From NCBI GenBank assembly GCA_043797085.1, contig JAZDQA010000006.1, positions 1 through 64,000 of the forward strand: a stretch of 64,000 nt of DNA. Reading direction: 5' to 3'. This DNA comes from Pseudomonadota bacterium (GTDB lineage Bacteria > Campylobacterota > Campylobacteria > Campylobacterales > Sulfurimonadaceae). This document shows positions 39,001 through 45,000 of this stretch, one piece after another (the stretch's first letter is position 1; each line of letters starts with the position of its first letter). The position numbers are program-made.

Positions 39001-42000
39001 TCAGTTTTTAGAAAATGAAACAAAAGCACACATGCACCTTGATCTCATCGTCGGACTTCCGGGAGAAACACTGGCAGGATTTGGGCGCAATCTCGATAAG
39101 CTTGTTTCCCTTACCCATAGTGAAATCCAAATCGGGATCCTCAAAAACCTCTCAGGAACAACACTATCACGCCACGATAAAGAGCATGGAATGATTTACA
39201 GTGATACACCGCCGTATGACATTCTCCAAAACAACAATCTAAGTTTTGAACAAATTCAGAAAATGAAACGGTTCGCTCGCTTTTGGGATATTTTTTACAA
39301 CAGCGGAAGTTTTGAGAATACGGTGAAGTTGCTATGGGATAAGGAAAGTGTATTTAACTCATTTTACGCCTTCAGCAAATGGATTTATACCCAAACCCTC
39401 TCTACATGGAAAATATCCCTAGATCGCCAAATAACACTCATCTATGACTATCTTATTCTAAGTCATGATAAAGAATTAGTAGAAAAAGCACTCACTGAAG
39501 ATATGAGTAAACGACCAGAAAAAACAATCCCTTTTTTCCTACGACAAAAAACATTGGAAAATAAAAATAAAAGTGAAAAAAGCATAACGCCAAAACGGCA
39601 GGCAAATCGGATTTGAAATAAAGGTAGGTGCGCTAGAGTGACGAATTCTAGCGCGGTAGTTTTATATAAGGAGAATCGAAAGGGCCCGAAGGCCCTGAAA
39701 AGGGTTTTCTAAGTACCTTAAGGTATTAGAATTTCAAAGAAGCGATAATACGGAGAGTATCTGTTGTTTTATCTGTAGTATTTGTAGCTTTTACATCTTT
39801 ATCAAATGATGTATAAATAGCTGTCAAATCAAGCATTCCAACTTTAGTAGCTGCAACAACGTCCCATGCTGTAAAATCTGTATTAAGTGTACTTGCACCA
39901 GCTGCTGCCCCTGCTGTACCGCCATTGTTACCTACTTCTGCTTGAGCATAACTTGCAGATAATGCTACACCTGGAACCATCTTAGTAGAAGCACCAATTT
40001 TCCATGTATCAGTATCTGGATTTGCTGCAATTTCACCATCCATATAAATGCTGCCAAGAGATGTATAAACCATTGATTTATCACCCGTTGCAACGTTAGC
40101 AAATCCTAAAGTACCTGCACTAACAGTTGAGTAAGCTGCGTAAACGTTTACACCTGCAACATCTCCTGATGCTTTAAGAGCAAAAACATTTGTATCACGG
40201 TGATTAGCAACAGCTGTACCAAGTGTAGTTGATGTAGAATCTGGCATCATACCAGCATATTGAGCACCAACGCTAATCATACCCATCAACTTGCTATCTG
40301 CTTGCAACCAATAAGCATCTGCTACACTAGGAACATTGTAATACCATGCTTGTAATGCAGTATCTGGAAGTGATTTATTGATTACTGCTGCAGCGTATGC
40401 ACCGCTAACTGCAAAATTACCAAATTCGCCACCATAAGATACGGTACTGCCACGACCTGAACCAAGCACACCAACACCATTATGTTTTCCAACCCATGCA
40501 GCTGCTAAAATAGTATCAGGCAAGAAATAACCGTGTGCGACTACTGCTTCGAAAGTATTATCAACAACGTTCCATGATTCTGTAAAACAAAGAGGTGTTT
40601 GCAATGCCATACGTCCAGCTGCAACATCAAACTCTTTTTGAGCGTATTTCAGGTTAGCTACTTCAGCCCAATATTGATCACTTACACGCTCAGCAACAGT
40701 CGTTGCTGTTCCATTCATTTTCATTTTAACTGCTGGAACATCTCCTACTAGATTATTCTCAAGACCAAGAGTAGAGACAGCTGTTACTTTTACCGCACCA
40801 CTAACATTTTGAAGCAATTTTGCAGAGGCACCTACTTTTAATGCAGTCAATGCCATAGAGTTACCAGTTTTATCAAAAAAACCTTGAGATGTGGTTGCAC
40901 CTGCACCTGCACCTGAAAATTCTGATGTTTGGTACCAAAGTTTTGCTTCACCGTCTACTTTAATATCTTCAAGCGCATATGCACTTGTTCCGAGAGCCAT
41001 TACAGCAACTAGACTCAATTTTCCTAATTTCATTCTTTCTCCTTGTATAAACCGTTCGTAAATAAGAATTACTTATTTCGAATCATGGGACAATCATAAC
41101 AATTACTTCTTAAATATTTCTTTATTTGTATAGTATTTTCTAATATATTGACAAATTTGTTACTGTGTGAGAGAAAATTGTGATAAAAAGCGTCAGGGAG
41201 ATTTAATTTGGGGTGAGGTTTTCCGTTCGTGGTGAGCCCGTCGAACCATGAACCCTTCGACATACCCTATAGGGCACGTGGGCTCACAGGATGAACGGTA
41301 TATTTTACCAGTTACGTATACGAATATGGCAAGAAGTACATTGTTTTAACAACTGATTGTAATCTTCCAGTGCATCATCCATTCTTCCTGCATCGATCGA
41401 TGCTATCATATCATTCGAATAAAGTCTGAGCATACTTGCTGTTTTTTGAGCGAATTGATAGGCGTATTTTTGATCTTTTGGCAAAATCCATTTTACGTCA
41501 TCTCCTTCTAAGGATTTAAGCGTTCCTTGAAGCTTTTTGATTCCGGCTTTCATATCGTCAGGTGAGCTGTAAAGTCCACCGCGCTGAATTTGTTCCATGG
41601 ATTCAAGCATGGTACGCATATCTTTCATCAACATCGAGCGATGGTCTTTTTCAGCAGCATTAATCGAAGCAGCCAACAGTCCTGAAAGTACAAATGCAAT
41701 TAGTGATTTTTTCATAATGATCCTTTTTAGTATTGGATTAGTTCTTTGGAAAATTCAGTCAATTTAACTGTTTTCGCCGAAATAGAAACGAGTTTTTTTG
41801 CCTCAGCCGGACCGTTATAAAACTGTTTAAGCTCCGGCTTGAACGATTTAAAATAGTCTTGGAATTTATCCAAACCTAAAATCCCGACAGCCCAAAGGGT
41901 ATCATCCGCCGCATGTTCTAAAACAACTGCTGCGAGAGGTTGAGACGCTGCTCCGCCTAGAACTTTTGCCCCTGCACGAACATCGAATGCTGACATGTGA

Positions 42001-45000
42001 GAAGAGCACACAATAATACCGCTTTTCTCGTATGCTATTGTCGGTGTTTTTTCAGGAACATACATGATGAAACTGTCACTTGGTGTTGGATGCGTCATTT
42101 GATGCGTACAGATGGCTACATAAGCTACAATCGTACGATCTTTGCCTACACCGCTTTTCCAAAGGTATTTTTCACCATTTTCTGATGTCAACTCAACATC
42201 AGTTAATGTCGGTTTAGGGAGATTGACCAACAAACAAGGGGTAGACGCATAAGGATAATTAAAAATATAATTGACCTCTTTTTCCAGCTTTGACGCTAAA
42301 ATCGGTTTGCCATCCGCTCCTATGAGCTGTGTTTTTTCATACGCTCTGTAAAGCGTTCCGTCTGACGCATACAAATTGCCTCGAATAAGCGATGGACTTA
42401 CCGCCATAACTGTTGCACTTGCAGCAACTACTTTTAAAAAGTTTCTTCTATCCATGATGATTTCCGTGTGAATTATTTTGTGGTGTGTAGTTTAGCAGGT
42501 TTTTTGTAAAATAAAATTTTGATTTTATCTCGTTTGTTTGCTTAGTCTGTGTAATTATATGCATTCCCAAGCTAGAGCTTGGGAATGAGAAAACTATTGC
42601 TTAGCTAAACAAATCTCTCATGGCACCTTTGTACCAATCGTGTGTTGCTTTTCCAAGACCTGTTGAGCGGAATTTATCGTTTACAGTATCTCCTTTTGGA
42701 ACACTTCCTTTGCTTCCGATAACTGGACCTGCAACCATAAACTCATGGTTAACCATGATTGCTTCTTCTGGATTACCATTTACCATTGAGTAGCACACGT
42801 TTGCACTTTTGTATGGAAGTGCTGATGCAACACTGTATGATTTACCGTGGAGAACGTGAGCAATCTCTTTTGCACACTCTTTACCTGACCAGATCGCTGT
42901 TTGACCGCTTGGTGGGATTGCATGTCCAACAACGTCACCGACTGCGTAAACATTTTTATCCGTTGCTGTTTGGAAAGAAACCGGTTTTTCAGCACTGGTT
43001 GCCATTTTAACTTTTTTGAATCCGTCTGGTGTAACGGCGACACCTGACATTTCAATGACTGGATTAGACATATTGTGCGGGATGAAGTTAAATACACCGT
43101 ATTTGATTGTTTTTGTCGTTTTTGTACCTTCAGTGTCTTCTTTGTTTGCAAAAACTGTCTGAACGTATGTAATCTCTTTTTTGTCGAAATCAACATCAGC
43201 GATTTTACAATTGCTTTCGTGTACTACTTGACCTTTGTTAACCTCAGCCCATGATTCTTTAAACGCTGCACCTTTAGCAATTTCAGCCGTTTCATTAAGA
43301 ATGATAACTTTACCGGTTAGCCCCTCTTTTTTCATGTAGTTAGCAATCATACTTGCACGCTCGAAAGGAGCTGGAGGACAACGGAATTTACCGGCAGGAA
43401 CAGTAATAACAACATCACCCTCTTCCATGTTTTTAACCATACGATCCAATGCGATGTGCTCACCGCCCGGAACTAATGCAGCCGGTGCTAAACGTTTAGC
43501 TTTTGCGATTTTAGCCGCATCCCATTTTGGGAATTGTCCTTTGTAGTTGTAATCAATACCGGGAGCCATAACCAAGATATCATAACCTACTGAACCTTTT
43601 GATGTATGAACCACTTTTGCAGCACGGTCAATTCCAGTAACAACAGCGGTCAACATTCCATATCCGTTTGCTTCAACCGCTTGAGAATAGTCATGCGTCA
43701 ATGTACCAAGGTTTACACCCTCGATTCCGCCAAGATTACAGTTTGAAAATGGGCAAGACATAAAGCTGTCATTTTTTTCGATAATCGCTACATCAAAATT
43801 TGCATCAATCTTTTTAAGCTCTTTAGCAACAGTTAAACCGCCGAAACCTCCACCGATAATAACAACTTGATGTTTACCAAGCATAACGCCAGCAGCTGCT
43901 GCTGCTTTTGCCGGAAGTGGATTAAAAGCAGTAGTACTGCACCCTGATACTGCAGCAGCGGCTGCACTGATACCTGCGAATTTAAATAAGTCACGTCTTG
44001 AAATGTTCATGGGTTTGATTCTCCTATTACTCTTTAAAGTGCAGGTATATTAATCCCGCATTCCTTAAAGTATTATAAGATTATATAAAATGAATGTAAA
44101 AAATGATAATAAGAGTTTATTATATAGAGAAGTGTGATAAATTTGTAACAATTCCCCATCTAATGGCTTTTTTGACTATTTTTATTGTTATAATGCTATC
44201 ATATACGAATAATAATTTATAAGGATGTTACTTATGAAAACAGTAGATTGCCAAAGCTTGGAAGAACTTCGGAACTGCATTGATGCCGTAGACGATCAAA
44301 TTGTGGAATTTATCGCTGCACGTAATGCGTATGTTAAACAAGCCGCCAAATTTAAACACTCCATAGATGAAATCAAAGGTAAAGAGAGAATGGAAGCGGT
44401 CATGGATCGTGTTCGAATGCGAGCAATGGAATTTGGAGTCTCTCCCAATCTTCTCACCAAACTCTATACTATTATGATCGATGAGATGGTGGAAGCGGAA
44501 ATTTCTGAGTTTAGGAATGCTAAGTCGTTATAAGATTGGATCCCGTGTCGTAGCACGGGATGACGAAGATTAAAACCGTGTTACCTCGTCCCCTTGTATC
44601 GCCATCATGACTCGACCGTGAAGAGTCTCATTTTTATACAATGAGTGGTGGTGAGTTACTTGCGTCATCTTATCGGGGTTAAAAATAATCAAATCCGCAG
44701 GAAGCCCCACGTTAATGATACCTTTACTCATTCCCACCGTGTCTGCCGGATTTTTAGATGCTAATTCTACGAGGCGACTCATTGTAATGGTCTCATTTTT
44801 AATAAGATGCGTATAGCATAAGGGTAAATATTCCCCGATCGATGTCGTTCCAAAACTGGCATCATTAAATGTAATATCTTTATGAATATCAGAATTGGGC
44901 TGATGCAAAGCGGATAAAGTGTGAATGTTTCCCTCTTGAAGCGAACGGATTAAAAATGCCCGTTTTTCTTCGCTTACCAACGGAGGATTGATTTTTGCAT

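Follow-up and report, generated by a model that had tools for sequence, protein, structure and literature searches.

Analysing a 64,000-nucleotide stretch of a Sulfurimonadaceae genome (hereafter the window), we found a four-gene cluster (Table 1) whose product is probably a periplasmic sulfide dehydrogenase composed of a flavoprotein of the FccB/DhsU type and, in place of the FccA cytochrome, a Rieske [2Fe-2S] subunit. Sulfide-oxidising Campylobacterota and Aquificota power carbon fixation at vents, in redoxclines and in sulfidic groundwater. Should the Rieske protein prove to be where the electrons leave, the pair would give a well-known enzyme family a new combination of subunits and would fix the redox level at which electrons from sulfide feed into the chain, and metabolic models that count an fccB lacking fccA as incomplete would have to be revised.

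The idea itself is not new, and the locus is a further member of a kind already proposed. Molari et al. 2023 (PMC10066037, Supplementary Note 2) proposed a Rieske protein as electron carrier for non-canonical FccB; the same work described the pair of fccB and aioB-like Rieske genes in Sulfurimonas, Sulfurovum, Aquifex and Arcobacter, and a high in-situ expression of fccB, which is the most plausible sulfide enzyme of S. pluma. Passages of Tamazawa et al. 2012 (PMC3504083) map a dhsU1–Rieske–dhsU2 arrangement in a Sulfurihydrogenibium-like Aquificae bacterium. The genome-wide survey's note had considered a Rieske partner undescribed for this flavoprotein family, a claim that these two papers predate, and had guessed that the 'non-canonical' flavocytochrome c of S. 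pluma might match, which it does, since the same fccB–Rieske pair is described there. As in the published definition of the non-canonical enzyme, the window holds an fccB-like gene without fccA and an adjacent aioB-like Rieske gene. With the clusters of Molari et al. it further shares the Tat-exported Rieske gene directly after fccB, the phylum and the proposed role, whereas the class II cytochrome, soxYZ inserts, Asp/Glu sister subfamily, lipobox and structural model presented below are absent from their note.

The ORF call recovered the four genes and their motifs exactly as first noted, all on the minus strand. The genes on both sides (radical SAM/B12 protein, chorismate mutase, PEP synthase, LpxB) are unrelated housekeeping genes, so that the cluster forms a self-contained island.

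Table 1. Position and basis of assignment of the features of the cluster, in window coordinates.
Feature	Position	Strand	Basis
FccB/DhsU-like sulfide dehydrogenase flavoprotein, 469 aa	42601..44010	-	ORF, PF21706, PDB matches
Tat-exported Rieske [2Fe-2S]-type protein, 242 aa, signal RRNFLK	41727..42455	-	Motifs, fold
Secreted mono-haem cytochrome, 136 aa, class II four-helix-bundle type	41305..41715	-	CTSCH 126-130
Opr-like outer-membrane porin, 435 aa	39726..41033	-	NF033922 1.5e-8, below cut-off
Promoter-like site TTTACA, 17 nt, TATAAT	44072..44100	-	11/12 consensus matches
Terminator-like GC-rich hairpin	39629..39655	.	11-pair stem, listed on + strand

The flavoprotein carries the Tat motif RRDLFK and, after it, VSGC, which resembles a lipobox and suggests that the protein is probably lipid-anchored as well. 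It passed the cut-off of PF21706, the FCSD central domain (2.5e-22, 79.6 bits, cut-off 27), and matched PDB chains 5n1t_A (9.9e-45) and 1fcd_A (7.9e-35), aligning with the former at SCPFSN, FRCPPAP..ER and CYS. By FCSD alignment, C86 is the FAD-linking cysteine, C211 and C406 are the redox-active pair and the active-site glutamate, E217, is conserved, the equivalence to A. vinosum numbering being taken from passages of PMC3504083. All of 33 Rieske-linked FccB homologs have C211, E217, C406 and W459, and at least 90% of them have C86. Fold, covalent-FAD cysteine, redox cysteine pair, Tat export and periplasmic location are those of the flavoprotein of FccAB (PDB 1fcd, 3vrd, 5n1t), but the window lacks the haem subunit FccA and has a Rieske iron–sulfur protein in its genomic place. 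No ORF with a CxxCH motif lies beside the flavoprotein gene, and a search of the same genome with a Campylobacterota FccA-like cytochrome returned a single weak match (E 1.4e-4, 25% identity), located 1.8 kb away on the opposite strand. Elsewhere, 11 FccB genes with an upstream 98–128-aa mono-haem cytochrome form a separate clade (support 100).

The ligand boxes of the Rieske protein are C116-T-H118 and C150-S-S-H153; these four residues are invariant in 33 FccB-linked members, and we infer that the protein binds a [2Fe-2S] cluster. The second cysteine of the classical Rieske disulfide is absent from both boxes. The protein stayed below the gathering score of PF00355 (E 0.015, 15.6 bits, cut-off 20.3), and matched AioB chains at ~3e-7, the Sulfolobus SoxF Rieske 1jm1 at 2e-7 and, over residues 2–198, the NCBIfam SoxL2 profile TIGR03171 (9.8e-23), with 80.6 bits against a cut-off of 582.1. 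Its AlphaFold model (pLDDT 88.6) has an AioB/SoxF-like Rieske fold, with AioB 1g8k_B (1e-7) and SoxF 1jm1 (6.3e-6) as best Foldseek matches and Thermus and bc1 Rieske chains also among the top ones. For FccB, Rieske protein and cytochrome alike, our profile searches agree with the family scores reported earlier. Some databases (one source) name the Rieske protein AioB, and AioB chains are its best structural matches; that it is the small subunit of arsenite oxidase is nevertheless highly improbable, and we rejected this identity, given 47.9 bits against a cut-off of 95.65 for TIGR02694, no adjacent AioA, and no molybdopterin subunit among the flanking genes or in the related loci mapped. AioAB and the archaeal SoxF and SoxL2 proteins provide the closest Rieske sequences and folds, and share with the proposed enzyme a Tat-exported Rieske protein serving as a periplasmic oxidoreductase's electron exit towards a c-type cytochrome. 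By contrast, the partner in the window is a flavoprotein, neither a molybdoenzyme nor a cytochrome b, and its Rieske protein falls below both family cut-offs and bears an extra C-terminal helical extension of ~45 residues, ending in ..LIQY.

Genomic linkage carries the pairing of this protein with the flavoprotein. Among 401 Campylobacterota genomes, a Rieske homolog occurs in 31, belonging to 17 of 63 genera (18 of 150 in the note, from which our counts differ because wider loci and more genomes were taken). An FccB-like gene accompanies it in all 31 other Campylobacterota loci, directly upstream in 26, with soxYZ between in three and in another order in two, confirming the suspicion that the five of seven first counted reflected loci cut too short; at locus L033, FccB is an 84-aa C-terminal ORF fragment at the start of a 3973-base contig. 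The Rieske gene is present in about half of the Aquificota genomes searched (90/178), with an FccB-like gene in 30 of 30 loci (directly upstream in 29, downstream only in one) and a second, downstream FccB paralog in ~19 of them. Metagenome loci (n = 80) include 30 of the His type, 26 of which have FccB adjacent, the upstream flank of the other four extending over only 540–845 nt. Near perfect across phyla, this linkage supports the Rieske protein as the flavoprotein's partner.

All 31 Rieske-bearing genomes fall within the 61 of 401 that have an FccB-like gene. Against the pairing, a Rieske homolog is absent from 30 of these 61, 34 FccB-like genes stand without any partner gene beside them, and no FccB–Rieske fusion was found. 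Such solitary genes are also what would be expected of a flavoprotein acting alone, or SQR-like to quinone, with the Rieske protein and the small cytochrome forming a separate periplasmic shuttle, merely co-located or co-regulated, an option that Molari et al. (PMC10066037) left open. The lipobox-like signal could hold such a flavoprotein at the membrane, and the Rieske gene lies closer to the cytochrome (11 nt from stop to start) than to FccB (145 nt), so that two transcription units are possible. Furthermore, according to passages of PMC3504083, recombinant DhsU1, encoded upstream of the Rieske gene, reduces horse cytochrome c alone, as a monomer, and the Rieske protein is therefore dispensable for activity in vitro. 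We nonetheless regard a separate shuttle as unlikely, since the linkage persists in at least three phyla although FccB clades have been exchanged, and is not seen in the Asp/Glu sister group, and since a complex model (below), whose controls scored 0.00, puts the cluster loops on the face at the flavin side. A partner swap is seen at L035 and L036, of the same genus and genomic slot, with Rieske proteins 71–72% identical and FccB only 33–34%.

The Aquificae dhsU cluster has a homologous FccB–Rieske pair, in which all catalytic cysteines are kept and the Aquificota Rieske proteins are 37–44% identical to that of the window. It differs in that Aquificota usually possess the second, downstream FccB paralog, and in the C-terminal residue of the Rieske protein (cysteine in Aquificota, tyrosine in the window); the 3.7-kb Aquificota loci yielded no homolog of the 136-aa cytochrome.

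The model of the flavoprotein–Rieske complex, built with alignments, FAD and 2Fe-2S, scored 0.76 (runs 0.79, 0.53 and 0.76), the best of three controls reaching 0.00; of 157 solved complexes 116 attain the mark applied, as do 2 of 215 mismatched pairs, in a calibration made without user alignments or riding ligands. Contacts agree to at least 89%, with a partner pLDDT of at least 91. The predicted interface sets Rieske residues 118–121 and 151–154 against flavoprotein residues 370, 400–405 and 455–466, with the cluster loops docked on the invariant W459 and the residues flanking the active-site C406. The model supports binding of the two proteins to each other. We infer the following mechanism, including which way the electrons run, what the cytochrome does and which substrate this organism uses: sulfide would be oxidised at the C211/C406 disulfide and FAD, and electrons would pass singly to the Rieske cluster, whose His-bearing loops would dock around W459, beside C406, on the C-terminal segment that binds the flavin; from there the electrons would reach the class II mono-haem cytochrome and then the respiratory chain. 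The linkage, the invariant ligands and the complex model thus uphold the part of the survey's reading that made the Rieske protein the partner and acceptor of FccB and the cytochrome the next carrier; its novelty, the porin and SoxYZ-bound sulfur were not supported.

For this last point, the alternative is that the pair acts on sulfane sulfur bound to protein, for instance as a helper like SoxF on a persulfide of a SoxY cysteine, rather than on free sulfide. A SoxY–SoxZ pair inside 7 of the 31 Campylobacterota loci (L033, L034, L037, L044, L048, L051 and L054; first counted as four of seven) would suit such a role, as would dhsU2 followed by soxXYZAB in the Aquificae cluster mapped in passages of PMC3504083. 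Bound sulfur finds no local support, however, and has a low probability: the window contains no sox gene, the genome's single SoxY match lies on another contig (contig 12), 24 of the 31 loci are without soxYZ, and those passages describe DhsU1 as a cytochrome c reductase specific for sulfide, which showed no activity with sulfur, sulfite or thiosulfate.

The putative next carrier bears a single CxxCH (C126xxC129H130) near the C-terminus (CTSCHIRIRNW) of a four-helix bundle, which is the class II architecture. It matched Cytochrom_C_2 at 0.0048 (18.3 bits, cut-off 26.5), and its model (pLDDT 87.4) comprises four long helices (2–48, 52–76, 83–108 and 112–134), with weak fold matches to cytochromes c' and b562 (E 0.03–0.2). 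Across 18 orthologs, M33, C126, C129 and H130 do not vary, and M33 is a candidate sixth ligand (low-spin subtype). Of the 31 other Campylobacterota Rieske loci, 19 contain the cytochrome gene (seven of seven in the note), in most cases immediately following the Rieske gene; close orthologs (E <1e-20) adjoin the Rieske gene in 20 of 22 genomes, a count that includes the genome of the window. Homologs of the porin, by contrast with its earlier placement in the system, are restricted to two of the 31 loci (L031 and L032), both from the window's genus, and the porin is probably an accessory of near relatives and not a core part.

Homologs with Asp/Glu at the position of H153 have FccB as a neighbour in none of 71 genomic loci, which a branch with support 91 sets apart from the others, and in none of 50 metagenome loci, of which 19 extend 1500 nt or more to either side. 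Members of this sister branch, which is common among Burkholderiales and other Proteobacteria, end in a conserved cysteine. We are evenly divided on a broader proposal, in which the Cys2His2 branch would serve exclusively as second subunit in a class of flavo-iron–sulfur sulfide dehydrogenases that is both ancient and distinct (Aquificota, Campylobacterota and scattered lineages), [2Fe-2S] replacing the FccA haem, and the sister branch a different periplasmic metal centre working without FccB. The split between His-type homologs with FccB and Asp/Glu-type homologs without it offers annotators a simple rule, and FccB–Rieske is a defined pair for biochemists to purify.

An RNA library contained contigs identical to all four genes, and no cover of the adjoining radical SAM gene. 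One of these contigs (41808-42754) spans the gap between the Rieske and FccB genes, a two-gene contig being no proof of a single transcript. The promoter-like site sits ~60 nt upstream of the flavoprotein start and is a consensus match only, such sites being as numerous in the region as expected from shuffling. At the other end of the cluster, the hairpin lies between the porin stop and the convergent radical SAM gene.

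An ORF check recovered the four genes described in the genome-wide survey's note, all on the minus strand and in the places it had reported, with gaps of 145, 11 and 271 nt between successive genes from the flavoprotein to the porin. A promoter-like site lies ~60 nt 5' of the flavoprotein gene and a hairpin 3' of the porin gene, both as consensus matches only, and the flanks are occupied by unrelated housekeeping genes (radical SAM/B12 protein, chorismate mutase, amidohydrolase, PEP synthase and LpxB). Contigs of the groundwater metatranscriptome X1 matched the porin and the flavoprotein with 0 differences and the cytochrome with 1 difference, and a further one (41808-42754, 0 differences) bridges the Rieske-FccB gap; these contigs prove neither a single transcript nor an expression rank. 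The radical SAM neighbour had no cover in X1, and the RNA runs X5 and X6 provided no useful cover. Elsewhere in the window, a stand-alone YcaO-family protein (PF02624, 5.7e-60), unrelated to the cluster, adjoins a MatE transporter gene.

Table. Coordinates of the flavoprotein-Rieske cluster and of other genes of the window mentioned in the text
Feature	Position	Strand	Length
YcaO-family protein	33344-34963	-	
Radical SAM neighbour	38284-39419		
Porin-like protein	39726-41033	-	
Small protein, CTSCH at end	41305-41715	-	136 aa
Rieske-like protein	41727-42455	-	242 aa
FccB-like flavoprotein	42601-44010	-	469 aa
Class I cytochrome c	45833-46246	+	137 aa

The central idea of a Rieske partner for FccB is already in print, and the cluster of the window adds a further member to this published, still putative kind. 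The order flavocytochrome-dhsU1-Rieske-dhsU2-soxXYZAB was mapped by Tamazawa et al. 2012 (PMC3504083), who showed recombinant DhsU1 to be a monomeric, sulfide-specific cytochrome c reductase but left the role of the Rieske gene undiscussed. According to Supplementary Note 2 of Molari et al. 2023 (PMC10066037), the fccB genes of Sulfurimonas, Sulfurovum, Aquifex and Arcobacter occur without fccA, the gene of the usual haem subunit, and a quinone route was left open. A passage of PMC4122944 deals with bc-type SoxF only. Our literature search, in which supplements were not indexed, returned no main-text paper testing or discussing an FccB-Rieske complex. New here are the quantified cross-phylum linkage of FccB and Rieske genes, the split of the Rieske family into His and Asp/Glu types, a class II cytochrome as the likely third link, the swapping of FccB partners, the putative lipobox of the flavoprotein, and a predicted FccB-Rieske complex that passes its controls.

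The Rieske gene was detected in 31/401 Campylobacterota genomes (17/63 genera), all of them among the 61/401 that carry an FccB-like gene. We compared 31 Campylobacterota loci besides the window, originating from 30 genomes (one with two copies) and spanning up to 18.7 kb each. An FccB-like gene was present in 31/31: it immediately precedes the Rieske gene in 26, while in 3 soxY-soxZ lie between the two and the remaining 2 show a different order; at one locus (L033) only its last 84 codons are seen because the contig ends there. The other neighbours were less constant, with the small cytochrome in 19/31 loci, soxYZ in 7/31 and a homolog of the window's porin in 2/31. Among Aquificota, 90/178 genomes had a Rieske match, about 83 of them full-length. 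In 29 of 30 Aquificota loci FccB immediately precedes the Rieske gene, and in the remaining one it is found only on the downstream side. About 19 of these loci have a second FccB paralog immediately behind the Rieske gene, which gives the order dhsU1-Rieske-dhsU2 of Tamazawa et al. 2012 (PMC3504083).

An exhaustive family search (306 cluster representatives with E values of 0.001 or less) extended the comparison to other lineages. Within the best 80 genomic loci outside Campylobacterota and Aquificota, FccB was found in 2 only, the remaining neighbours being variable housekeeping genes (aat/ate, MoeA, AcrB, AmtB, LysR/sulfite reductase). After filtering the ORFs of high-GC loci by codon-position GC for neighbour clustering, a conserved partner gene for the proteobacterial members was rejected, their neighbours being variable; these members belong to the Asp/Glu subfamily. 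Stand-alone members carry Asp or Glu at the position of H153, in the second ligand box, in 71/71 alignment rows. The Asp/Glu members, with CCAD, CCAE or CCSE as box II and a C-terminal Cys in most, lie on one side of a branch with a support of 91 and represent a large sister group of Tat-exported Rieske-fold proteins (among the loci L062-L141 and L227-L306), hosted by Burkholderiales, Usitatibacter, Acidiferrobacteraceae, Methylomirabilis and others. A metagenome scan added 80 further family loci. FccB was adjacent in 26 of the 30 alignment-checked His-type loci, the other 4 having only 540-845 nt of upstream flank, and was found in 0/50 Asp/Glu-type loci, 19 of which had flanks of 1500 nt or more to either side. 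By alignment, box II is CSSH or CGSH in the metagenome loci L285, L301, L296 and L298. Within the sequence visible, FccB linkage thus coincides without exception with a complete set of Rieske ligands. No FccB-Rieske fusion was found: the long representatives of the 306-cluster search carry AcrB, deacetylase or ABC fragments that look like read-through gene calls, and the search for longer proteins likewise yielded nothing, which is weak evidence.

The sequence signals of the Rieske protein itself are weak but consistent: its match to Pfam Rieske (E 0.015) is under the cut-off, those to the NCBIfam models SoxL2 (9.8e-23) and AioB (1.2e-12) are both far under theirs, and PDB hits include Sulfolobus SoxF (2e-7) and AioB chains (~3e-7). 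Its structural model, built from an alignment of 33 homologs in which C116, H118, C150 and H153 are invariant, reached a pLDDT of 88.6 and a pTM of 0.87, with AioB, SoxF and bc-type Rieske domains as the closest structures and ~45 helical residues beyond the Rieske fold. In classical high-potential Rieske proteins, the second Cys of the ligand boxes forms a disulfide; this residue is in neither ligand box here. The C-terminus of the protein (window 41727-41744; alignment A4) follows a conserved pattern, K-[ED]-[IV]-[IV]-x-[YC], whose last residue is Tyr in most Campylobacterota and Cys in Aquificota, the gammaproteobacterial loci and the loci L060/L061.

The flavoprotein, the only FccB-like protein encoded in the genome, matches the FCSD central domain PF21706 (2.5e-22) as well as flavin subunits of known structure, 5n1t_A (9.9e-45), 1fcd_A and 3vrd_B, with which the FAD-linking C86 (SCPFSN), the redox-active C211 (FRCPPAPFER) and C406 (VCYS), and E217 are aligned. 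Across 33 Rieske-linked FccB homologs, C211, E217, C406 and W459 do not vary, and 90% or more of these sequences retain C86. The N-terminus of the flavoprotein (window 43939-44010) has a lipobox-like VSGC behind its Tat motif. Similar strings (e.g. LTGC, ITGC, LSAC) occur in 11/12 proteins of the window's own clade and also in the clade of cytochrome-linked FccB, and are not present in the Aquificota FccB homologs. This combination suggests that such flavoproteins are Tat-exported lipoproteins.

The two proteins were modelled together with alignments for both and with FAD and the 2Fe-2S cluster included. The model supports binding, with a score of 0.76 (runs 0.79, 0.53 and 0.76) against 0.00 for the best of 3 controls, a contact agreement of at least 89% and a partner pLDDT of at least 91. 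The mark for this score was reached by 116/157 solved complexes and 2/215 mismatched pairs, counts that hold only roughly since the calibration was made without user alignments or ligands. On the Rieske side, the interface comprises the ligand loops 118-121 and 151-154 together with residues 238, 240 and 242 of the C-terminal tail, which packs on flavoprotein residues 451-455; on the flavoprotein side it comprises residues 370, 400-405, flanking the active-site C406, and 450-469, including the invariant W459. Such a predicted geometry is what one would look for if the flavin passes electrons to the cluster. The survey's note had proposed that a Rieske [2Fe-2S] subunit passes flavin electrons to the small cytochrome in a periplasmic sulfur dehydrogenase; its observation is real, and comparative analysis and structural prediction lend this functional interpretation good support.

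The small cytochrome is modelled as a four-helix bundle, with weak structural matches to cytochromes c' and b562 and a weak class II match in Pfam. M33, C126, C129 and H130 are invariant in 18 orthologs; we read it as a class II mono-haem cytochrome, which may be low-spin through M33. Close orthologs (E < 1e-20) occur in 22 genomes and adjoin the Rieske gene in 20/22, the window's own included. A second, distant paralog of the 136-aa cytochrome (28% identity, E 2.7e-12) lies on contig 13 of genome G000 (159879-160253, minus strand), and 67/401 Campylobacterota genomes contain weak paralogs belonging to this class II-like family. The 137-aa class I cytochrome c (PF00034), which overlaps the lpxB start and whose synteny is kept across the genus, is the genome's sole match, albeit weak (E 1.4e-4, 25% identity), to the mono-haem FccA-like cytochromes of other Campylobacterota, and could act as a downstream acceptor.

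In a FastTree phylogeny of 120 FccB-like proteins (midpoint root for drawing only), Rieske-linked genes fall into several clades (the window's own, two of Aquificota and one mixed), with 34 partnerless Campylobacterota genes interleaved, and 11 FccB genes preceded by a 98-128-aa mono-haem cytochrome group apart from the others on a long branch with a support of 100. Two loci of the window's genus, L035 and L036, occupy the same slot between the chorismate mutase and radical SAM genes, with the porin absent. Their Rieske proteins and cytochromes are 71-72% and 79-82% identical to the window's, their FccB only 33-34%, and the latter falls in the other major clade. FccB has thus exchanged partners, the flavoprotein of L035/L036 being an in-place swap. 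At another locus (L178, contig 20 of genome G074), a lipobox-bearing FccB 60% identical to the window's has no adjoining Rieske gene; the Rieske gene of that genome adjoins a different FccB on contig 17 (L037). At L179 and L183, other-clade FccB-like genes without a Rieske gene adjoin 457-489-aa outer-membrane-barrel-like proteins in which BLAST finds no similarity to the porin of the window, and the FccB-porin neighbourhood may recur independently.
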